Below, piece after piece: positions 6,742-23,821 of a stretch of 64,000 nucleotides of DNA (position 1 is the first letter of the stretch; the number at the start of each line of letters is the position of its first letter). Location: the NCBI GenBank assembly GCA_965261085.1, contig OZ253442.1:1728001-1792000 (forward strand), in the 5' to 3' direction. The stretch comes from a bacterium (GTDB taxonomy: Bacteria > UBA8248). A program made the position numbers and the translations under genes. A model generated the notes under the pieces. The model was not told where the DNA came from. It searched no databases and was given only the letters and a program-made list of their open reading frames with translations.

Positions 6742-7920
6742 CTATAGTTTTTTCAGTCCCTCGCTGAGATCGTCCCTTAAAACCTCAAAATCCTCGAGTC
6801 CCACTGAATATCGAATCAGACCTGCGGAAATGCCCCGATTCTCAGCGCCTTCTATCCCGATATCCGCATACGCCATCTTTACGTGATGTTCCACCTGGCT
6901 CTCTGTGCCGCCGAAGCCGGGAGCAAACACGGGAATTTGCAGAGCGTTCACCAACTCGTCGGCTTTTTCAGGCTCTCCATGCAGTTCAAAGCTGACCAGC
7001 CCGCCAAAAGCGGACATGTATTTAACGGCTCGCTCATGATCCGGGTGAGATTCGAGGCCGGGGTAGTGAACCCGGGAGACCTTGGGGTGAGCGGCGAGAA
7101 ATTCAGCCAATCGAAGGGCCGTGTCGCTGATGCTCCGGACACGCAATTCGAGCGTTTTCAATCCTCGCTCCACCAAAAACGCATCTTGCGGTCCGAGAAT
7201 GGAGCCCAGCAAAGCTTGTTGTTCACGTAACGCGTCTATTATGTTCAGGCGGCCTGAAACCGCACCCGCGATGACGTCGTTGTGCCCGCCGATATATTTC
7301 GTCGCGCTTTGAACGGCTAAATCGGCTCCATGCTCCAGCGGGCGAAACAAAGCGGGAGATGCGATGGTTGAGTCCACGATGAACCTGGCTTTTCTTTCGT
7401 GGGCCCATTCGGCCATTTTTTCGATATCGGGTATACGCAGCGTGGGGTTGGATGGAATTTCCGTGAACAACACCCGCACCGGCTCGTCAGAGAGGTCTTC
7501 CAGAGATTCCACCGAATTCTCCGCCAGGATTTCGACGCATACCCCGTACCGTGAAAGGAGGCCCTCTGCGACGTCTCTCGTATGCCTGTAGCATTCTTGC
7601 GGGATGACGATTCGCGCTTTTGGCGCCAGGAGCGAGAGAAATACAGAAGAGACGGCCGCCATGCCGCTAGCGTATAAGAGGGAAGCCTCCGCGCCTTCCA
7701 TGCGGGCGAGCCTGCGCTCGGCGGCTTCGTTCGTCGGGTTGCCGTAGCGTGAATAAAAAAACGCGTTTTTCTCGCCGCTATGAAAAGCTGCTAGATCATC
7801 CGAACTGTCAAACGTGAAAGTCGCGGTTTGGAAAATTGGCGGTGAGAGAGACTTCTTTGCCTGATTGCGCTCATCTCTCCTCATGTTTTTCGACAATGTA
7901 CTCATCTCCTGTTGTTGCAT
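6742..7920 (-). CDS. metB: Cystathionine gamma-synthase family PLP enzyme
   Basis: YSRYGNPT, SGMAA, SATKYIGGHND, IRYSVGLED. Confidence 0.8.
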   Translation of the reverse strand: MQQQEMSTLSKNMRRDERNQAKKSLSPPIFQTATFTFDSSDDLAAFHSGEKNAFFYSRYGNPTNEAAERRLARMEGAEASLLYASGMAAVSSVFLSLLAPKARIVIPQECYRHTRDVAEGLLSRYGVCVEILAENSVESLEDLSDEPVRVLFTEIPSNPTLRIPDIEKMAEWAHERKARFIVDSTIASPALFRPLEHGADLAVQSATKYIGGHNDVIAGAVSGRLNIIDALREQQALLGSILGPQDAFLVERGLKTLELRVRSISDTALRLAEFLAAHPKVSRVHYPGLESHPDHERAVKYMSAFGGLVSFELHGEPEKADELVNALQIPVFAPGFGGTESQVEHHVKMAYADIGIEGAENRGISAGLIRYSVGLEDFEVLRDDLSEGLKKL

Positions 7921-7953
7921 GGGTAGAGCGAGGAAACGAAAAGCAAATGGATG

Positions 7954-9297
7954 TTACGTGACGGACAATGCTCCAAGTTTTTTCTCGATGACATCTTGAA
8001 CCGCGTTGATATCCTCTGGAAGATCGATGGGAGTATTCGCGAATCGGCTATCAAGGCCCGGAATTTCTTTTTTGTGATAATTGACCTTGAATTCAGTAAA
8101 TTTTAGCCCGTGCGCCGTAGAGATGACTACGACCCGGTCTTTGGGGTTTATTTCTCCGCGCGCGATTATTTTTTCAAGGGCGGCCAATGCCACGCCGGTC
8201 TGGGGACAGTTGTACATTCCGGTTCTGTCCGCGCGAGCAGCAGCGTTGGCCAATTCCTCTTCGCTCGCCTGTTCAACGGAGCCCTCGAAAGCTTTCAAGG
8301 TTCTGATAGCCCTCTCGATGCTTACCGGATTACCGATTTGGATTGCCGTCGCCAGCGTTGGTTCGGCGGCTATGGGGTGAAATTCCCGGAAACCGGTCAT
8401 AAAACTTCTGTACAGGGGATTGGCTTTTTCCGTCTGAGCGCAAACGATGCGGGGCAACTTGTCTATCAGCCCCAAATCACGCATCTGCATGAAACCTTTG
8501 CCCAGCGCGCTCACGTTTCCCAGGTTTCCGCCAGGGATAATGATTAAATCGGGAACCTCCCAGTCAAACTGCTGAACGAGCTCTATGCTGATGGTTTTCT
8601 GGCCTTCGATTCGCAGTGAATTCATGCTGTTGGCAAGGTATATACCTTGTTCCTCGCACACCTGTTTCACGATGCGCATACAACCATCGAAATCCGTATC
8701 GATAGCGAGCACCATGGCGCCGTTCGCGATAGGCTGAATGAGCTGCGCCACCGATACTTTCTCTCGCGGTAGAAAAACGATGGCAGGGATATCGGCCGCT
8801 GCGGCGTACGCAGCCAGTGCGGCGGAAGTATCGCCTGTCGATGCGCAGGCGACGGCGTGAAGTTTTTTCCCATCGGCCATCATTTGCTGGGCGGCGGATA
8901 CGAGCACCGTCATGCCGAGATCCTTGAAAGAGCCCGTGTGGCTGTTCCCGCATTGTTTGATCCACAACTCGCCGATTCCGAGTTCCCGGCCCAGACGGTT
9001 GGCCCAGAAAAGGTTCGTCCCTCCCTCATAGAACGAAATGATGTTTTCATCATTTATCAACGGACAAACCCACTCTTTTTTCCCCCACACACCACTGCCG
9101 TACGGCCATATGTTGCGCTGGTAGCGGTCGTCGAACAAATGACGCCACTCGGACGCGCTCCGCATTCGCAGGGTTTCTAGATCGTGGGTGACTTCCAGAA
9201 GACTCTCGCATTCGCGGCACTGGTAGACGGAATCGAAAATGGAATAGGTTGCTTCGCATTCAGGATTTATACATTGGAACCAACAGTTGCAGTCCAT
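7954..9297 (-). CDS. thrC: Threonine synthase
   Basis: [13 protein letters not shown] lysine motif, [24 protein letters not shown]. Confidence 0.95.
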
Positions 9298-9429: not shown

Positions 9430-10683
9430 TTATGTCGTAGCCACCTGGGTAATACGGACCTCTTTTTCGTTGATGAAAGTGACTATCACCGCCGCCTGTA
9501 GGCAAAGGTAAGCGGCCAGAGCGAATGCGAGGTTGTAGCTGCCAGTCACGTCATAGATGTATCCGCTCAACCAGGCGCTAAGACCCGAGCCGAGTTGGTG
9601 GCTGAACGTGATGAGCCCGAATAGAATGGCCACATTCTTGGATCCAAAGAAATCTCCCGTCAATGCCGAAGTGAGCGGGACGGTCGCTATCCATGAAAGG
9701 CCGATGATCATGGGTGTGGCCCAGACGGTAAAATCATTCTTGTAGAAGATGAACAGGACGAATCCGAGGCCCCTGAAGGCGTAAATCAGGCTCAAGGGGA
9801 TTTTTCTGCCTATTTTGTCCGATAGGGGGCCAACCGCCAGAACCCCAAGTGTGTTGAGGCCGCCTCCCAGGGCGAATGATGTGGCTGCAACGGTGGCGGA
9901 GAAACCCACGTCCGTCGCAAACGGCACCCAGTGGACGGAAACGACGGTCACGGTGAAACCGCAGGTGAAGAAACTCGTAAGCAAAAGCAGGAACGGCATC
10001 TTGTGAAGACACTGGACCCAGGGCAAATCGTATGGAACCACCATTTTGAAGTTGCCGCCGGAAGAGGTTGTGCCCGGGAGGGTATCCCCGGTTCCTGGAG
10101 AATTCTTGACGATGAAAATCGAAATGGGCATCAGAGTGAATATGAAAATGATGCCGATGGTGAGCGAAGTCGTTCTCCAGTCCAGAAAGCCCATCAGATA
10201 CGCGAAGAAAGGAAGCAGTAAGAGTTGTCCCATGCTCGACCCGGCGCTGACGATCGACATGCCCAAACCCCGTCTGTCCGGGAACCAGTTGGATACCAGC
10301 GGGGTAAAGGCGGTCACGCTGTTGCCGATTCCCCCTATTCCCAGCAGGATGCCGAAAAACAGATACACGCCCCACAGAGAGTCGACCTGGCTGATTCCCA
10401 GCATGGCGATGGTCGTCAACGCCGACCCCCAGATGATGATCGTTTTGGGGTCCCAGCGGCGCATCATGAGTCCGCCCAATGGCTGGGATGCTCCGTAGAG
10501 AATCAGGCAAAGAGAGAAGGGGAGTGACAATGCGGCGCGGCTGATCTTGAAATCTTCGATCATCGGCTTGAGGAAGAGCCCAAAGGAATTTCTGGTCGCC
10601 AGGCCCAAAAACATCATCGTGAAGCACCCGGCCAGGATGTACCAACCGTAATATATTTTTTTCGGGGAAGCGGTTTGGCTCAC
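9430..10683 (-). CDS. MFS transporter (OFA/monocarboxylate-like)
   Basis: About 12 hydrophobic segments, WFPDRRGLGMSI, GPLSDKIGRK, GYIYDVTGSY. Confidence 0.9.
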   Translation of the reverse strand: MSQTASPKKIYYGWYILAGCFTMMFLGLATRNSFGLFLKPMIEDFKISRAALSLPFSLCLILYGASQPLGGLMMRRWDPKTIIIWGSALTTIAMLGISQVDSLWGVYLFFGILLGIGGIGNSVTAFTPLVSNWFPDRRGLGMSIVSAGSSMGQLLLLPFFAYLMGFLDWRTTSLTIGIIFIFTLMPISIFIVKNSPGTGDTLPGTTSSGGNFKMVVPYDLPWVQCLHKMPFLLLLTSFFTCGFTVTVVSVHWVPFATDVGFSATVAATSFALGGGLNTLGVLAVGPLSDKIGRKIPLSLIYAFRGLGFVLFIFYKNDFTVWATPMIIGLSWIATVPLTSALTGDFFGSKNVAILFGLITFSHQLGSGLSAWLSGYIYDVTGSYNLAFALAAYLCLQAAVIVTFINEKEVRITQVATT

Positions 10684-15714: not shown

Positions 15715-15953
15715 CCTCGCCTCATTCGGTTTTTATGGGGACAACCCCGAAATCTTTCGCGTTTTCTCAGGCTCATAAATCCCGCGCCATGAACCCCGCG
15801 CGGGTGTTTTTGATGGCGATAAGGAGAGGGAACAATCGAAGCCTTCCCGCCCCTTTCGGGGTTTGTTTATACCACAGAGGAAGCCGATGCGCTTTTGGGG
15901 AGACCGAGGGAGGAGAATTGCGTCCCCGAAGTGCCGGAATTGAGATGAGTTCG

Positions 15954-15982
15954 TGGACTTCAAAAGTGGCTTATCGTATCAT
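15954..15982 (+). promoter_or_regulatory. Candidate sigma70 promoter of the Ubl cassette
   Basis: TGGACT-N17-TATCAT ending 55 bp before the GTG start. Confidence 0.4.
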
Positions 15983-16037
15983 AAACGTGCTTGGTTGTCT
16001 TGAGTCTGAATCTAGCCGACGCTACAGGAGAAACGAC

Positions 16038-16295
16038 GTGAAACAAGATGACGACACTAAGGACGGACGCTTTGAATTCAAAATCGATGGTGAACAACTG
16101 TATGCTCCGCACGAATCGATAACCGTTGCAGAACTTATCCAGATTGCTTTGGATGCAAAGGTTCTTGATCCAGTACAGGAGGGCTACACCCTTGAAGATG
16201 GCAAGGGAAATACCTTCGCCCCTGATGCTGTCATCGATCTTGACAAGACTAATGTGTTCTATGCAACAGAAAATGAACCAGGACCCGCTTCGTAG
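16038..16295 (+). CDS. Ubiquitin-like (multi-ubiquitin family beta-grasp) protein, 85 aa
   Basis: AGGAG RBS then GTG; FEFKIDGEQLY..ITVAELIQIA..VIDL..FY pattern; first gene of an E2/JAB-E1 operon. Confidence 0.8.
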   Translation: MKQDDDTKDGRFEFKIDGEQLYAPHESITVAELIQIALDAKVLDPVQEGYTLEDGKGNTFAPDAVIDLDKTNVFYATENEPGPAS

Positions 16296-16324
16296 ATTCT
16301 TCCCCGCCTGGAAATGGATAGTGA

Positions 16325-16732
16325 TTGGTGGAACCTCTAACTGACTCCTTCCCGCCAAACCTTGTTCAGCTCCGTGACGCACTTTATGAAATAGACGTTG
16401 CGGACTTGGAGATATGCACGTGGCTTACGCGTCGCATGTTACGTGCGTGCGTTCCCGTTTATGTCGGCAAGTACGCCGGATCGATCAAACGGGTTGGGTG
16501 GAGCTTTCCCGACGACTCACAACCGTTTCCAGAATACGCTCCCCATTGGTTCCATGTAGCGGGAGAATACGACGATGGGAAAGAGGGTGCATGTGAGAAA
16601 GATCACGATGAAGATGGCAAATTGTGGCTTGCTTGGAGTCGTCCAATTGGCCCGTCCTGGATCGGCCCGTATCGGACTCCAAAGAAGCTCCTTCGGTCGA
16701 CTGTTACTCGATTTTGGAAGGCTTTGAAATGA
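16325..16732 (+). CDS. Prokaryotic E2/UBC-like protein (family E / BubB-like)
   Basis: FPEYAPHWFHV and WLAWSRP..W motifs; lies between Ubl and E1. Confidence 0.72.
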   Translation: MVEPLTDSFPPNLVQLRDALYEIDVADLEICTWLTRRMLRACVPVYVGKYAGSIKRVGWSFPDDSQPFPEYAPHWFHVAGEYDDGKEGACEKDHDEDGKLWLAWSRPIGPSWIGPYRTPKKLLRSTVTRFWKALK

Positions 16733-18135
16733 CTACTTACTCAGTGGCTTGGCGTTCTGAAGTTGAAGCTATTGCCCGCCGTCACCTTCTGCAGCATCAC
16801 CATCTTGGCCGTCGCCAAGAGGATATTGCACTTGCTACATGGTATCCCGCGAGCGGTTCCAATCGCTATACTGCCATCATTGACGAAGTACTTTTGCCTA
16901 CAGAAGAAGAACGTATTCTCCAAGGCAACGTACAGATGACACGCGATTTTCTGCGTCGTTGCCGCCAGCGAGCGCTTTCGAAGGGTGCCGGTATGGCGGT
17001 AATGCACAATCATTTCGGTCCCGGTTGGCAGGAAATGAGTCCGGACGACGTTATTATGGAGCGTCGGAGTGTCTCCAATCCTGCCCGTGCGACCGGGCTA
17101 CCGGCTTTGGGCTTGACGCTCGGTACTGACGGAGCTTGGAGTGCTCGGTTCTGGATCCGAAAAAGATCGGATTTCGAGCGTCGGTGGTGCTCTTCAATCC
17201 GTATAATTTCTCCAAGCCGACTGTCGTTTCATGCCAATCCCCATGTTTTTCATTCTGACCTGAATGAATCGTCTTTGGAACGTTTTCGTCGATCTGTTGA
17301 GGCATGGGGTGTTGAGAGCCAAGCACTCCTAGGACAGTTGAAAGTTGGAATAGTCGGTCTCGGTAGCGTAGGCGCGCTAGCAGCCGAGGCGATGGGCCGA
17401 ATGGGTATACGACGGCTGGTCCTGATAGATATGGACTGTGTCGAGCCACATAATTTGGATCGCCTTGTTAATGCAGGTCGTTGGGATATTGGTCGATATA
17501 AAGTTCACGTGGCAGCAGAACATCTAGAACGTACGGCGTCTCATCCTTTTCATGAACTTATCGCTTTACCATTATCGCTTCGTGAGTCAAAAGCCTATCG
17601 ATCACTAGCTGATTGTGATGTTATCTTGGCCTGCGCAGATAAACCTATTGCACGTGATCTTGTAAACCATCTTGCTGTATGTCACTTGATCCCGGCAATT
17701 GAAGCTGGTGTTGCCCTTCGAAGCCGTGGTGGTCGCCTACATAAGGGTCATATCGTCTCTCAGGTGGTTACACCCGATAGCCGGTGTCTCAGATGCACAA
17801 AACAGTACACGACGGATCAACTCAGCCTGGAACTGGAAGGTCTACTAGAAGATCCGGAGTACATCCGCACCTTGCCGACTGACAAACGTCCCAATGCAGC
17901 CAACATTTTTCCAGCCAGTTTAGCGGCTGCATCGCAGCAAGTCGGTCTATTCACAAGAATGGTCCTTGGCCCGGAATGGTGGCCTCCGGTGTACCAACAG
18001 CGCCACCATTTAAGTGTTGCCTCACAACATATATCAATGGATGTTTGCAAGCCTTATTGCGACGTTCATGCACGCAACTGCCAAGGTAACCTCGGTGAGC
18101 CGAAGTGGCTTCTGCTATCAGGCGATTCTTCGTGA
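16729..18135 (+). CDS. JAB/JAMM peptidase - ThiF/E1 adenylyltransferase fusion
   Basis: ATGA overlap with E2 stop; JAMM motif E...HNHFGPGWQEMSPDD; GLGSVG, D..EPHNLDR, CLRC and CKPYC zinc ligands. Confidence 0.88.
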   Translation: MTTYSVAWRSEVEAIARRHLLQHHHLGRRQEDIALATWYPASGSNRYTAIIDEVLLPTEEERILQGNVQMTRDFLRRCRQRALSKGAGMAVMHNHFGPGWQEMSPDDVIMERRSVSNPARATGLPALGLTLGTDGAWSARFWIRKRSDFERRWCSSIRIISPSRLSFHANPHVFHSDLNESSLERFRRSVEAWGVESQALLGQLKVGIVGLGSVGALAAEAMGRMGIRRLVLIDMDCVEPHNLDRLVNAGRWDIGRYKVHVAAEHLERTASHPFHELIALPLSLRESKAYRSLADCDVILACADKPIARDLVNHLAVCHLIPAIEAGVALRSRGGRLHKGHIVSQVVTPDSRCLRCTKQYTTDQLSLELEGLLEDPEYIRTLPTDKRPNAANIFPASLAAASQQVGLFTRMVLGPEWWPPVYQQRHHLSVASQHISMDVCKPYCDVHARNCQGNLGEPKWLLLSGDSS

Positions 18136-18138
18136 CTT

Positions 18139-19113
18139 ATGAGTGATTCCAAGGAATTAGAAGCGTTGCTACTGGAAGCGGACGGGATTGTCAATCGCGC
18201 CCATGAACTTCTTCATTCATGGCCTAACGCCAAAGCTGATCTAAAATCAGCCGAGGAGCTATCGTCATTACATCTAGCTCACTATACCTCTTTGGAAGCC
18301 ATTGTTTATATGCTTCAAACTTCAGATGGTGGCCTTCGACTCTCTCATACCTCAATAATGAACGATCCTGAGGAGGGGCGTGCCACTCTAGAAGGTCGTA
18401 TGATCTCGCATTTGCTGGAAAATGAATTCGGTGATGAGTCTTGGCTTTGGCAACGCTATGGTGCAGCTAATGTTTGCTGTTTTGTTGGTATCGTGCGTGA
18501 CGGTGAGCAAACTATCGACGCTGGTGACGACCTTCTCTTCTGGCGTCTTTATGGTAATGACTGTCGAGGCATTTCCATTACCCTCCCTCCTCACGTATCG
18601 AGGCGACTTGTTGATTCTTCTACTGTCGATTGCGTTATATATACCGACGATCCATCACTCGAAATTGATCTGTCGTTATTTTCATCTCTACTAAGGGACC
18701 TTGATTCTCTCCGCTGTCGTGCCCGCAATGCAGGACTTTGGTCTAAGATTTGTCCAGATGTTCTTGCCGCTTGTGATCCGCTCTTAAAGCAACGTTTTCT
18801 GCGCAAACGTTCCCATTATGCAATAGAACGCGAATATCGTGTCGTCGCGTTTCAATCAGAAGATGACGCTGAGGATGTTCTCTACTCCGGTGGTGGTCGG
18901 CATGTGCAACACGGGCTAATTCGAAATTACATACAAATTCCTGAACTGAGTTGTGAAGATATCCTCACTACAAATAGCCAAATTACGATTGGTTCCAATG
19001 TCCTCGAATCTTCAACTACGAAAGACATACTTTACAATTTGCTCGAATCTCGTGGGATAGTCCGTGGTGTAGTTTCCGTTCGTATTTCGGAAATTCCTTA
19101 TCGACCGCGCTGA
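18139..19113 (+). CDS. DUF2971 domain protein
   Basis: HYTS, MNDPEEG, DDLLFWRLYG..GISI, K..Y..EREYR. Confidence 0.8.
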   Translation: MSDSKELEALLLEADGIVNRAHELLHSWPNAKADLKSAEELSSLHLAHYTSLEAIVYMLQTSDGGLRLSHTSIMNDPEEGRATLEGRMISHLLENEFGDESWLWQRYGAANVCCFVGIVRDGEQTIDAGDDLLFWRLYGNDCRGISITLPPHVSRRLVDSSTVDCVIYTDDPSLEIDLSLFSSLLRDLDSLRCRARNAGLWSKICPDVLAACDPLLKQRFLRKRSHYAIEREYRVVAFQSEDDAEDVLYSGGGRHVQHGLIRNYIQIPELSCEDILTTNSQITIGSNVLESSTTKDILYNLLESRGIVRGVVSVRISEIPYRPR

Positions 19114-19121
19114 AATCCAGC

Positions 19122-19271
19122 CACGACGTGCCCGAGGCGGTGATTCGCAAGAGGTTCGACGCCGGGTGGCGCAACTTCGAGCAAGTCTACCAGGACTTGG
19201 TCGATGGGTGGATTTTGTACGATAATTCGGGCGATGAGCCGAAATTGCTGGTAGAGGAGTCGAGTGAATGA
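19122..19271 (+). pseudogene. 3' fragment of zeta-toxin family P-loop ATPase
   Basis: Translates HDVPEAVIRKRFDAGWRNFEQVYQDLVDGWILYDNSGDEPKLL; no start codon or P-loop part present. Confidence 0.75.
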
Positions 19272-19495
19272 ATTCACGGAAACAAAACCTGACGCTAAAG
19301 CCTCGCGACCCGGACTTCGTAGGTTCTGATGTCGCGATGCTGAGGGCCGCCAAACGTGCGCGGCAACGAGCGAAAGAAACAGCCGAAATCGCCGCGGCGA
19401 CCAAAGGAAGCGGCGAGAGCGGACGAGGCGTCCGAGGGTTTAGAGCGCAAACCGGGCGAGATACAGGGGATGAACACCAACCGCGACCCACGTGA
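19268..19495 (+). CDS. Small protein of the type partnered with zeta-toxin family ATPases (putative antitoxin; C-terminus possibly degenerate)
   Basis: ATGA overlap with the zeta fragment; RDPDFVGSDVAMLRAAKRAR. Confidence 0.55.
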   Translation: MNSRKQNLTLKPRDPDFVGSDVAMLRAAKRARQRAKETAEIAAATKGSGESGRGVRGFRAQTGRDTGDEHQPRPT

Positions 19496-19556: not shown

Positions 19557-19793
19557 GTAGGGGCGGACCTATGTGTCCGCCCTGGTATTGATAACGGGCG
19601 TATGCGTCAGACCCTGCTTCTCAATCGCCGTCATTCTTGCGAATGCCGGAATCCAGAACTGATGCGTTTCTCGTCTGCCTAGATTCCGGCATGCGCCGGA
19701 ATGACGAGGTGGTGAATTTCGATGGTGTGGGTGTGATGCTTTGTAGGGACAGGTCGAGACCTGTCCCCACCCCTTCTTGAGGCCCGCCCCTAC
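19557..19793. repeat. Cluster of REP-like palindromes
   Basis: GTAG-GGGCGGAC..GTCCGCCC (19557-19582), CGTCATTC..GAATGACG inverted pair (19629-19706), GTAG-GGACAGGTCGAGACCTGTCCC (19743-19767), CCGCCCCTAC (19784-19793). Confidence 0.75.
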
Positions 19794-23128: not shown

Positions 23129-23344
23129 ATGACGGGTTTTGAAACGGCGACACTCGGGTTCTACACCATGCAGTCCATGATCGGGCTCGCGCAGTGCGGG
23201 CTCATCTGGATGGGCCTTAGGCAAATGGGCCGCTCTTCGGAATTGCGTGAAAGAGAAGGAGCGAGACGGCATGATGAGGTCATGAAAAATCACTCTGAAT
23301 CCATGACCGCGCTTAAGACGCTCATCGAGCGGACAGCGAAGTAA
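23129..23344 (+). CDS. Small membrane-anchored coiled-coil protein, copy 1 (71 aa, 1 heptad)
   Basis: AAGGGG RBS; protein conserved across three copies with mainly third-position changes. Confidence 0.8.
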   Translation: MTGFETATLGFYTMQSMIGLAQCGLIWMGLRQMGRSSELREREGARRHDEVMKNHSESMTALKTLIERTAK

Positions 23345-23584: not shown

Positions 23585-23821
23585 ATGACGGGTTTTGAAA
23601 CGGCGACACTCGGGTTCTACACCATGCAATCCATGATCGGGCTTGCGCAGTGCGGCCTCATCTGGATGGGCCTTAGGCAGATGAGCCGCTCCTCGGAATT
23701 GCGCGAAAGAGAAGGAGCCAGGCGGCATGAGGAGGTCATGAAAAATCATACCGAGACCATGAAAAATCACGAGGAGTCCATGACCTCCCTCAAGACGCTT
23801 ATCGAGCGGACAGCGAAGTAA
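23585..23821 (+). CDS. Small membrane-anchored coiled-coil protein, copy 2 (78 aa, 2 heptads)
   Basis: AAGGAGG RBS; paralog of 23129-23344. Confidence 0.8.
   Translation: MTGFETATLGFYTMQSMIGLAQCGLIWMGLRQMSRSSELREREGARRHEEVMKNHTETMKNHEESMTSLKTLIERTAK

Follow-up and report, generated by a model that had tools for sequence, protein, structure and literature searches.

A bacterial ubiquitin-like conjugation cassette of the Bub kind with a DUF2971 gene in the place of BubE

Background

Does the DUF2971 gene that follows a ubiquitin-like conjugation module in a bacterium of the UBA8248 lineage belong to that module, and what could the combination do? The question is raised by a 64,000-nucleotide stretch of the forward strand of contig OZ253442.1 (positions 1,728,001 to 1,792,000; assembly GCA_965261085.1), here called the window, in which positions 16038-19113 hold a cassette of four tightly packed open reading frames (ORFs), all on the + strand. 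In order, they encode a ubiquitin-like protein (Ubl; P0001), a protein resembling ubiquitin-conjugating enzymes (E2; P0002), a JAB/JAMM peptidase fused to an enzyme of the ubiquitin-activating type (E1; P0003) and a divergent DUF2971 protein (P0004). Among known systems the cassette is compared mainly with Bub. BubE (DUF6527), a peptidase of the Ser-His type by which conjugates are removed, is stated to be part of every Bub operon (10.1101/2024.11.21.623953), and the Bub catalogue was built from DUF6527-containing operons (10.1101/2024.11.21.623966).

The cassette is a real four-gene unit and a new variant of the Bub kind, in which the constant companion is a DarT-like DUF2971 enzyme and no longer BubE. 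On balance we think it probable, with room for doubt, that a Bub-like Ubl module is here genetically locked to a DUF2971 ADP-ribosyltransferase (ART) resembling DarT and Tpt1, and that the two form what is likely an anti-phage or stress-triggered toxin system, with conjugation predicted to control an effector that uses nicotinamide adenine dinucleotide (NAD+).

Association of the DUF2971 gene with the E1 gene

A scan of one genome per species yielded 412 stretches encoding a relative of the cassette E1. The results reported here come from the best 80 of the 412, which fall into three clades, and the E2, Ubl and DUF2971 partners in each clade were counted by profile searches. Clade 1, in which E1 is 72-81% identical to that of the window, comprises five loci (E2 in 5, Ubl in 4, DUF2971 in 5) from Acidobacteriota, Binatia, Rhodothermales, Chloroflexota and Marinacidobacterales, so that one such family is spread between distant phyla at this level of protein identity; clade 2 (E1 identity 38-44%) comprises 55 loci (E2 in 55, Ubl in 55, DUF2971 in 48); and clade 3 (37-41%) comprises 20 loci (E2 in 14, Ubl in 6, DUF2971 in 0). 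The gene order of the cassette recurs in the 60 clade-1 and clade-2 loci, which come from many phyla, and this recurrence is more than chance; a DUF2971 gene adjoins the E1 gene in 53 of the 60. The first-pass annotation of the window, made from its letters alone, had proposed that the DUF2971 gene is coupled to a Bub-like system that it extends, and that the coupling should be visible in the neighbourhoods of E1 homologues. The coupling is indeed visible there, and also from the side of the DUF2971 gene as described below; the idea of an extension to a complete Bub system does not hold, since the gene stands in the place of BubE.

Of the 53 partners, 42 are convergent with E1 and 11 are codirectional with it. 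Clade-1 partners are codirectional, with a 3-nucleotide (nt) gap in four of the five loci; the partner in L012 is cut by a contig end, and that in L034 is a stump of 71 amino acids (aa). Among the 42 convergent loci, the 3' ends of E1 and DUF2971 overlap by exactly 35 nt in 23, for example at L013:7445-7479. The two proteins have also diverged together: their pairwise identities are correlated across 47 loci (r = 0.85, Mantel p = 0.001, a kind of p value that kinship inflates), with r = 0.86 within clade 2 alone (44 loci); E1 and E2 give r = 0.88. The DUF2971 partner evolves faster, with a mean pairwise identity of 37% versus 64% for E1.

When 34 genomes of the phylum were searched with both queries, three were found to have both genes, adjoining, and 31 to have neither. 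A metagenome scan that started from the DUF2971 side found seven loci, two of which end at the DUF2971 gene; E1, E2 and Ubl are present in all five that reach past it, these five representing two distinct sequences.

The DUF2971 gene is broken in three of the 53 loci: it is split into two ORFs in L029; its 71-aa stump in L034 is followed by an HNH_5 gene (L034:7411-8713); and in L085 (G030:C6:1758167-1766830) its 5' part lies 8 kb away and an internal TAG is present. Clade-2 loci that have no partner vary in what comes after E1. In L014, from Latescibacterota, a TIR/SEFIR protein (7524-8441, +) is encoded in the DUF2971 slot, which fits an interchangeable NAD+-consuming output. The gene after E1 encodes a STAND-like ATPase in L059 and a 911-aa DNA methylase in L047 and L056, the former with PIN and helicase genes as well; resolvase and Tn3-type genes follow E1 in L040, an ORF without a Pfam match and then the contig end in L036, and nothing recognisable in L061. 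L014 also carries a bona fide DarT gene (10019-10660, +; 1.7e-62), 1.6 kb past the TIR/SEFIR gene.

Proteins of the conjugation module

The Ubl gene (16038..16295, +) has a GTG start with an AGGAG sequence 6 nt upstream, and encodes an 85-aa protein of the Multi_ubiq type. P0001 itself has no Pfam match, Multi_ubiq (PF14452) included. Multi_ubiq is matched by 10 of the 36 members of its family (best 9.8e-19), all 30 of its 30 Atlas feature matches are Multi_ubiq clusters (best 0.92), and a profile of the clade-1 and clade-2 Ubls picks up Ubls in clade-3 loci, such as L060 at 3e-8; from this family membership we infer a beta-grasp fold. The C-terminus of P0001 reads EPGPAS, with no terminal glycine. 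Among 51 Ubl family members (two mis-called ORFs having been dropped), P-x-P-[AVI]-[AS] is the exact end of 45 and is followed by 2-9 extra residues in the other six, and these few C-terminally extended Ubls would give the JAB domain something to trim. The window Ubl and its four closest relatives have PGPAS at the end, the others mostly PTPVA. The Ubl gene is closed by a TAG stop at 16293-16295, and the E2 follows in another frame; the two are separate genes also in the clade-1 and clade-2 relatives, and a fused Ubl-E2 is encoded in some clade-3 loci, for example L060.

The E2-like gene (16325..16732, +) may start at TTG 16325, which gives 135 aa, or at GTG 16328, which gives 134 aa and aligns better with the start codons of its relatives. 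P0002 has no match in Pfam and no sequence match in the PDB, and Prok-E2_E is matched weakly by 11 of 37 family members (best 8e-5). Its AlphaFold 2 (AF2) model has a predicted local distance difference test (pLDDT) score of 89.2. The best VIA-align match of the model is Citrobacter BubB (9eae_C; Z 8.5, root-mean-square deviation 4.1, 120 of 128 residues), with a UBC/UEV fold in every one of the 50 rows shown; a Foldseek search of the PDB returned nothing at E <= 0.001 for this model, its rows (E > 0.03) being mostly E2/UEV chains. At the level of the predicted model, the gene 2 product is confirmed as a UBC fold closest to BubB. Invariant residues of the family are G48, W101, S105 and W112, with H77 nearly invariant in the motif P-E-Y-P-P-H-W-x-H. 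Ser105 lies within W-x3-S-R-P, and a conserved cysteine is absent from the family; BubB, for its part, acts via S333 with H335 and D299 (10.1101/2024.11.21.623953). As a separate observation, two Ubl-E2 pairs precede one E1 in some relatives, and in others a second E2 gene converges on a codirectional DUF2971 gene (L019, L023, L025; L038, L044, L049, L050, L053).

The third gene (16729..18135, +; 468 aa) begins with an ATG that overlaps the TGA of gene 2 as ATGA (16729-16732). P0003 consists of a JAB domain (approximately aa 1-170) and a ThiF-type adenylation domain (approximately aa 188-468), and ThiF (4e-32) is its only Pfam match. Residues E31, H93, H95, S104 and D107 of the JAMM site are invariant in 19 homologues, as are G210, G212, G215, D234, D236, N242, R245, K258 and D304 of the adenylation domain. 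Beyond the Rossmann motif the invariant cysteines form two pairs only, C353/C356 and C440/C444, which look like a zinc site. Between the pairs no cysteine is conserved; Y378 is kept without exception in the three clades, and Y360 almost without exception. The spacing from the first cysteine pair is similar to that at which UBA5 has its catalytic cysteine. By analogy, Y378 is the best candidate for the tyrosine of E1 that would accept the Ubl.

In a search of solved chains with the family profile, Citrobacter BubCD (9ea4) is the top match (E 2.6e-27, positions 55-329, which include the HxH region, with alignment to BubCD 55-317), and the next E1-like enzymes follow at 3.5e-16. In a search with P0003 alone, BubCD is one of several matches near 1e-11 (E 2.3e-11, Rossmann part), so P0003 and BubCD are distant kin. 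As the JAB-E1 fusion in Type I Bub operons, BubCD has the active site E28, H91, H93 and D104 and a catalytic Y370 in a cysteine-free crossover loop (10.1101/2024.11.21.623953). PADLOC models of E1-E2 proteins (Cap2) match the E1 domain of P0003 at up to 8.6e-23, and the PADLOC BilD model reaches 1.5e-4 over residues 206-270 only (65 residues).

The first-pass annotation had read beta-grasp, E2-like, JAMM and ThiF motifs in these genes and had proposed profile searches and fold modelling of the two small proteins. ThiF stands on its Pfam match, the JAMM site on its invariant residues and the E2 on its AF2 model, which has the UBC fold; the beta-grasp fold of P0001 is supported at the level of its family. 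Of the Pfam models that it named, ThiF alone is found on the window proteins, with Multi_ubiq, Prok-E2_E and Prok-JAB giving no match and DUF2971 falling below its cut-off, as detailed below.

The DUF2971 protein

The fourth gene (18139..19113, +) follows gene 3 after a 3-bp gap and encodes a divergent DUF2971 protein of 324 aa. DUF2971 is matched at E <= 0.1 by 39 of 46 members of the P0004 family (best 1.3e-7), and the PADLOC single-gene candidate PDC-S31 by 40 of the 46. The Atlas matches of P0004 are DUF2971 clusters in 30 of 30 cases (best 0.97), with a recognition value just below the mark of the tool. Motifs of the family are HYTS (48-51), NDPxEG (75-80), FWRxYG (134-139), G-x-G-C-S (142-146), Y-x2-E-x-E-x-R (227-234) and a conserved C-terminal S-x-I-x-Y-R. 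Across the 46 sequences Y49, Y138, Y168, E230, E232 (the two glutamates of an ExE) and R234 are invariant, and H48 is conserved in at least 90%. The residues described for the HYE clade (PMC12522546), a His in motif I, a Tyr in motif II and the ExE of motif III, are all present, with several tyrosines as candidates for motif II.

The AF2 model of P0004 (pLDDT 89.3, predicted template modelling score 0.88) has large helical inserts. In a VIA-align search of 48,161 chains, yeast Tpt1 scores Z 8.1 with 120 residues aligned, and four DarT entries score Z 7.0-7.8 with 142-153 residues aligned; the Tpt1 and DarT rows span residues ~32-323, and the rest of the highest-scoring rows, all helical bundles, align with the helical inserts. 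DUF2971 has been predicted to be a DarT-like ADP-ribosyltransferase of the HYE clade with large helical inserts, and has been tied to DarT by sequence (PMC12522546). A DUF2971 protein, Aristaios (316 aa, from a Lactococcus plasmid), is listed among the antiphage systems discovered in one study and is reported to have an abortive-infection phenotype (PMC11381338). P0004 is accordingly described here as a predicted effector of ADP-ribosyltransferase fold with a DarT/Tpt1-like core.

Relationship to known systems

The system most like the cassette is Type I Bub (formerly 6E.1/DUF6527), represented by Citrobacter sp. RHBSTW-00271 (9ea4/9eae). Shared features are a JAB/JAMM-E1 fusion alike in size and in the order of its domains, with catalytic positions E31/H93/H95/D107 here versus E28/H91/H93/D104 in BubCD; an E2 whose nearest fold is BubB, with an invariant serine and no conserved cysteine; a Ubl of the Multi_ubiq type; and, in some relatives of the cassette, neighbouring genes for a helix-turn-helix protein and an M78 peptidase (HTH+M78, CapH/CapP-like). 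There are also differences. Ubl and E2 are separate here and in different frames, whereas Bub has a BubAB fusion, from which JAB releases the Ubl after a conserved glycine; the cassette Ubl is free-standing and ends in PGPAS or PTPVA, and the Bub Ubl in glycine; the E2 has S-R-P where BubB has S-x-H; and in place of BubE/DUF6527 the cassette has the DUF2971 ART-like gene. The Bub-like character proposed in the first-pass annotation thus survives in the top profile match of the E1 (BubCD) and the nearest fold of the E2 (BubB); the Bub layout that it had also seen does not hold for Type I, given the separate Ubl and E2, the lack of a glycine end and the DUF2971 gene in the place of BubE.

DUF6527 (PF20137) was matched by none of the four cassette proteins at E <= 1 and by none of 193 neighbouring ORFs of 39 related loci, and the same model does find two genes elsewhere in the genome. 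These belong to two canonical DUF6527 (BubE) operons outside the window, each beside another E1 (L101, G000:C1:2449741-2452917; L102, G000:C1:2403994-2407176). One of the two consists of Multi_ubiq (66 aa), DUF6791-ThiF (398 aa) and DUF6527 (143 aa), the layout of Type II Bub, and the other of ThiF (417 aa), DUF6527 (138 aa) and an SDH/ClpP-like protease (336 aa).

With Type II Bub (BubA, BubBD and BubE) the cassette has in common the Multi_ubiq Ubl and a chemistry of the oxyester type, reported for Type II Bub (10.1101/2024.11.21.623953) and predicted for the cassette; Type II Bub differs in its E2-E1 fusion, the lack of JAB and the presence of BubE. Bil (BilABCD) has the same list of parts (Ubl, E2, JAB and E1) and is a defence system. 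It differs in its E1, a large protein with adenylation domains in tandem and a Cys domain, in its separate JAB and in its thioester chemistry, where P0003 has one ThiF domain in 468 aa with JAB fused. An assignment of the cassette to Bil is ruled out by the single ThiF, the fused JAB and the BilD match of only 1.5e-4. In Type II CBASS, with Cap2 and Cap3, and in the related Pycsar and 6A-MBL systems, E1, E2 and JAB parts are likewise attached to a defence enzyme, which they regulate by conjugation; Cap2, however, is an E2-E1 fusion, free Ubl is absent and the substrate is the CD-NTase. The cassette, having no E2-E1 fusion and no cyclase, is not a Type II CBASS.

For P0004, the DarT of DarTG (PF14487; 7omv, 7yk3, 8baq) and Tpt1/KptA are the best fold matches apart from helical ones (Z 7.0-8.1, 120-153 residues aligned), and the acidic motif lies on the corresponding strand; DarT is unlike P0004 with regard to the large helical inserts, and the strength of the match is at chance level for VIA-align. 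None of the four cassette proteins has a Pfam match to DarT or Macro (DarG), and DarTG is ruled out as an identity for the cassette for lack of a DarT Pfam match and of a macrodomain. Aristaios and PDC-S31 are of the same DUF2971 family, with similar size and a predicted ART fold (PMC11381338); they are single-gene systems, unlike the P0004 subfamily, which is tied to a Ubl/E2/JAB-E1 module. The literature consulted includes no paper linking DUF2971 to a ubiquitin-like system, and older comparative genomics by Iyer, Burroughs and Aravind may list such operons.

Acquisition and genomic context

The first-pass annotation had described four tightly spaced genes on one strand, with the ATGA overlap and the 3-bp gap, richer in A and T than their flanks and horizontally acquired, and all of this is borne out. 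The ORF coordinates given above agree with the described spacing. The G+C content is 49.2% in the cassette versus 58.5% in the window outside it; 218 further segments of that length have a standard deviation of 4.0% and a minimum of 47.8%, so the cassette is clearly more AT-rich than its flanks and is not unique in the window in this. Homology of the left flank to the congeners G008, G004 and G006 stops at 15895-15902, and resumes at the right junction (19114..19270, +) at 19120-19122, inside a C-terminal ORF remnant; the flanks lie 470-478 bp apart in these three congeners, with different sequence between them, versus 3.2 kb here. Nucleotide similarity to the closest relatives, which are of clade 1 and from other phyla, covers the genes only, from 16019-16026 on. 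A full-length E1 relative is present in two of 23 genomes of the genus, namely the source genome and G011 (43% identity). The four-gene segment is an insertion relative to the congeners, horizontally acquired.

A leader upstream of the cassette (15903..16037, +) came in with it and contains a weak promoter-like site (15954-15982) and the AGGAG ribosome-binding site (16027-16031). Promoter-like sites in the scan are no better than chance (3 found versus a shuffle mean of 3.5), and likewise for terminators. There is no tRNA in the window and no integrase near the cassette, and a search of the cassette flanks for repeats, direct or inverted, found none of note.

Among the related loci, 16 of the 20 scanned have restriction-modification genes, toxin-antitoxin (TA) or abortive infection (Abi) genes, HTH+M78 (CapH/CapP-like) genes or transposase genes within ~3 kb. 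The kinds found are restriction-modification, GmrSD, Fic, HigB, PIN, DarT, HTH plus M78 peptidase, and transposases; clade-3 loci have the same kinds of neighbours. From this context a defence or toxin role for the cassette is likely. Viral contigs contain no full-length relative, only short ThiF-domain matches of 27-47% identity, and so give no sign of a phage-borne cassette. The plasmid collection contains only JAB-E1 genes of ~30% identity, on actinobacterial plasmids. Two of these, Clavibacter plasmid pCCa (L119) and a plasmid of M. avium (L120), carry a distant core of multiubiquitin, a small hypothetical protein and JAB-ThiF (~30%), with neither DUF2971 nor DUF6527 annotated near either core; the core on pCCa adjoins AbiE and HigA genes.

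Proposed function and alternatives

Protein conjugation by Bub, reported in 2024, goes through oxyester intermediates (10.1101/2024.11.21.623953), and by analogy with it the cassette E1 would adenylate the C-terminus of the Ubl, which is a Ser or Ala after P-x-P-V/A. The Ubl would then pass to the E1 tyrosine and on to Ser105 of the E2, in each case as an oxyester, and finally to a lysine of the target; JAB would trim C-terminally extended Ubls and may also remove conjugates, again on the model of Bub (10.1101/2024.11.21.623953). The DUF2971 protein, from its fold, motifs and family, is predicted to modify DNA or RNA, and possibly protein, by NAD+-dependent ADP-ribosylation, with the result that growth or phage replication would stop. 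More speculatively, the effector may be switched on or off when the Ubl is attached to it, or to a target that depends on infection, in the manner of Cap2 and Cap3 on the cyclase of Type II CBASS; alternatively, the conjugation module may behave as the antitoxin of the effector. Where the clade-2 genes converge with the fixed 35-nt overlap, the effector could be controlled separately, perhaps by an antisense route. A still more specific proposal, which we regard as tentative and on the whole rather doubtful, is that a cysteine-free Ubl machine acts as the switch or antitoxin of a DarT-like toxin that ADP-ribosylates nucleic acid, with an NAD+-consuming output that can be swapped, being DUF2971 mostly and TIR once.

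The interest of such a system would be that Bub-type pathways, the target and output of which are reported as not known by their authors (10.1101/2024.11.21.623953), would have a first visible effector, and that toxins could be controlled in a new way, by protein tagging. A BubE-free family locked to a predicted NAD+-using toxin makes the phenotype testable, in the form of toxicity, use of NAD+, and ADP-ribosylation of DNA or RNA. It also takes the bacterial ubiquitin-like systems past the set that was catalogued by way of DUF6527.

Several observations weigh against the proposal that the Ubl module controls a DarT-like effector in defence. With regard to linkage, 20 of the 80 loci, those of clade 3, have the E1 without a DUF2971 partner, and most clade-2 loci have the DUF2971 gene on the strand opposite to the other three genes, so that it is not transcribed together with them. 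With regard to the effector, P0004 scores under the Pfam cut-off for DUF2971 (PF11185; 16.7 versus 22 bits, E 0.019); VIA-align Z values of 7-8 are, by the tool's own note, typical for models without a true match; and Foldseek against the PDB gave nothing at E <= 0.001, its top row being M. tuberculosis DarT at E 0.32. With these weak statistics the fold agrees with the published prediction of a DarT-like ART and does not prove it. With regard to conjugation chemistry, the S-R-P of P0002 has no His at +2 after the serine, unlike BubB (S333/H335), and a profile of the C-terminal part of E1 finds no relative in the PDB, so that Y378 is not tied to Y370 of BubCD. Finally, no Bub operon tested in E. 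coli gave phage protection, according to the authors of the Bub preprint (10.1101/2024.11.21.623953), and the neighbours of the cassette in the window, which encode an SNase-type nuclease, an HD/OB protein, NfeD and SPFH proteins and an aldolase, are of a housekeeping kind and do not form a defence island.

Legionella SidE-type enzymes ADP-ribosylate ubiquitin, and the ART of the cassette might similarly act on the Ubl pathway itself, with the Ubl, the E2 or a conjugate as its substrate, as a part of the conjugation chemistry or as its switch. The unusual Ubl C-terminus, which ends in Ser or Ala and has no Gly, the tight co-divergence of DUF2971 with E1 and the position of the gene in the place of BubE, a conjugate regulator (10.1101/2024.11.21.623953), would all suit such a role. 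We nevertheless hold it to be unlikely, because DarT and Tpt1, the best fold matches of P0004, are ARTs directed at nucleic acids, and because a TIR protein filling the same slot fits a generic NAD+-consuming effector better.

Alternatively, the DUF2971 gene could be an independent single-gene defence system or toxin that merely lies beside a three-gene Ubl module in variable regions. Aristaios does work as a single-gene system (PMC11381338), most members of the P0004 family (40 of 46) match the single-gene candidate PDC-S31, the gene runs opposite to the other three in 42 of the 48 clade-2 loci, and both clade 3 and the actinobacterial plasmids carry the three-gene core without DUF2971. Independence of the two is, however, hard to reconcile with the two genes staying neighbours in 53 of 60 loci across numerous phyla, at constant spacings (the 3-nt gap or the 35-nt overlap), with co-divergence of DUF2971 and E1 (r = 0.85) close to that of E1 and E2 (r = 0.88), and with the occurrence of this DUF2971 subfamily only where the E1 is (three of three genomes versus none of 31, and five of five loci in the reverse scan); we therefore judge it improbable.

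A similarly low probability attaches to the view that the cassette is a selfish addiction module of the TA kind, in which the conjugation genes would restrain an ART toxin and have no dedicated anti-phage role. The sporadic, horizontally moved cassette, the effector gene broken in three of 53 loci, as expected for a toxic gene, and the convergent 3' overlap, which could permit antisense control, are in keeping with it. The window, on the other hand, contains no mobility genes, tRNA or flanking repeats, and because TA and Abi functions overlap, an addiction module would differ from a defence system controlled by conjugation mainly in its trigger.

That the cassette is instead a ThiF/MoeB-type pathway for a sulfur carrier or cofactor, as the best NCBIfam rows for P0003 would suggest, is rejected as extremely improbable. 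Those rows are far below their curated cut-offs (for example 73 versus 275 bits), and such a pathway is out of keeping with the fused JAMM, a partner of UBC fold, the absence of a Gly-Gly carrier, the patchy occurrence and the presence of an ART.

Other features of the window

The whole stretch is present only in sequencing runs of one sample, with no RNA run listed among those that contain it. The ORF remnant in which congener homology resumes (19122-19495) is the C-terminal part of an older ORF that was cut further by the insertion, a 63-aa remnant being present already in G008; judged by eye, it may resemble the end of zeta-toxin-like kinases. It is followed by a conserved 75-aa ORF without a Pfam match. 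Farther along, two paralogous small ORFs (23129-23344 and 23585-23821; 71 and 78 aa), both of which start with MTGFETATLGFYTMQSMIGLAQ and neither of which has a Pfam match, form a tandem unit of ~456 bp. Between the remnant and these ORFs, at ~19624-19724, a stretch of ~80 nt has the look of a repetitive extragenic palindrome or miniature inverted-repeat transposable element (REP/MITE), and tens of copies of it, lying in either orientation, occur in this genome as in most genomes of its genus.

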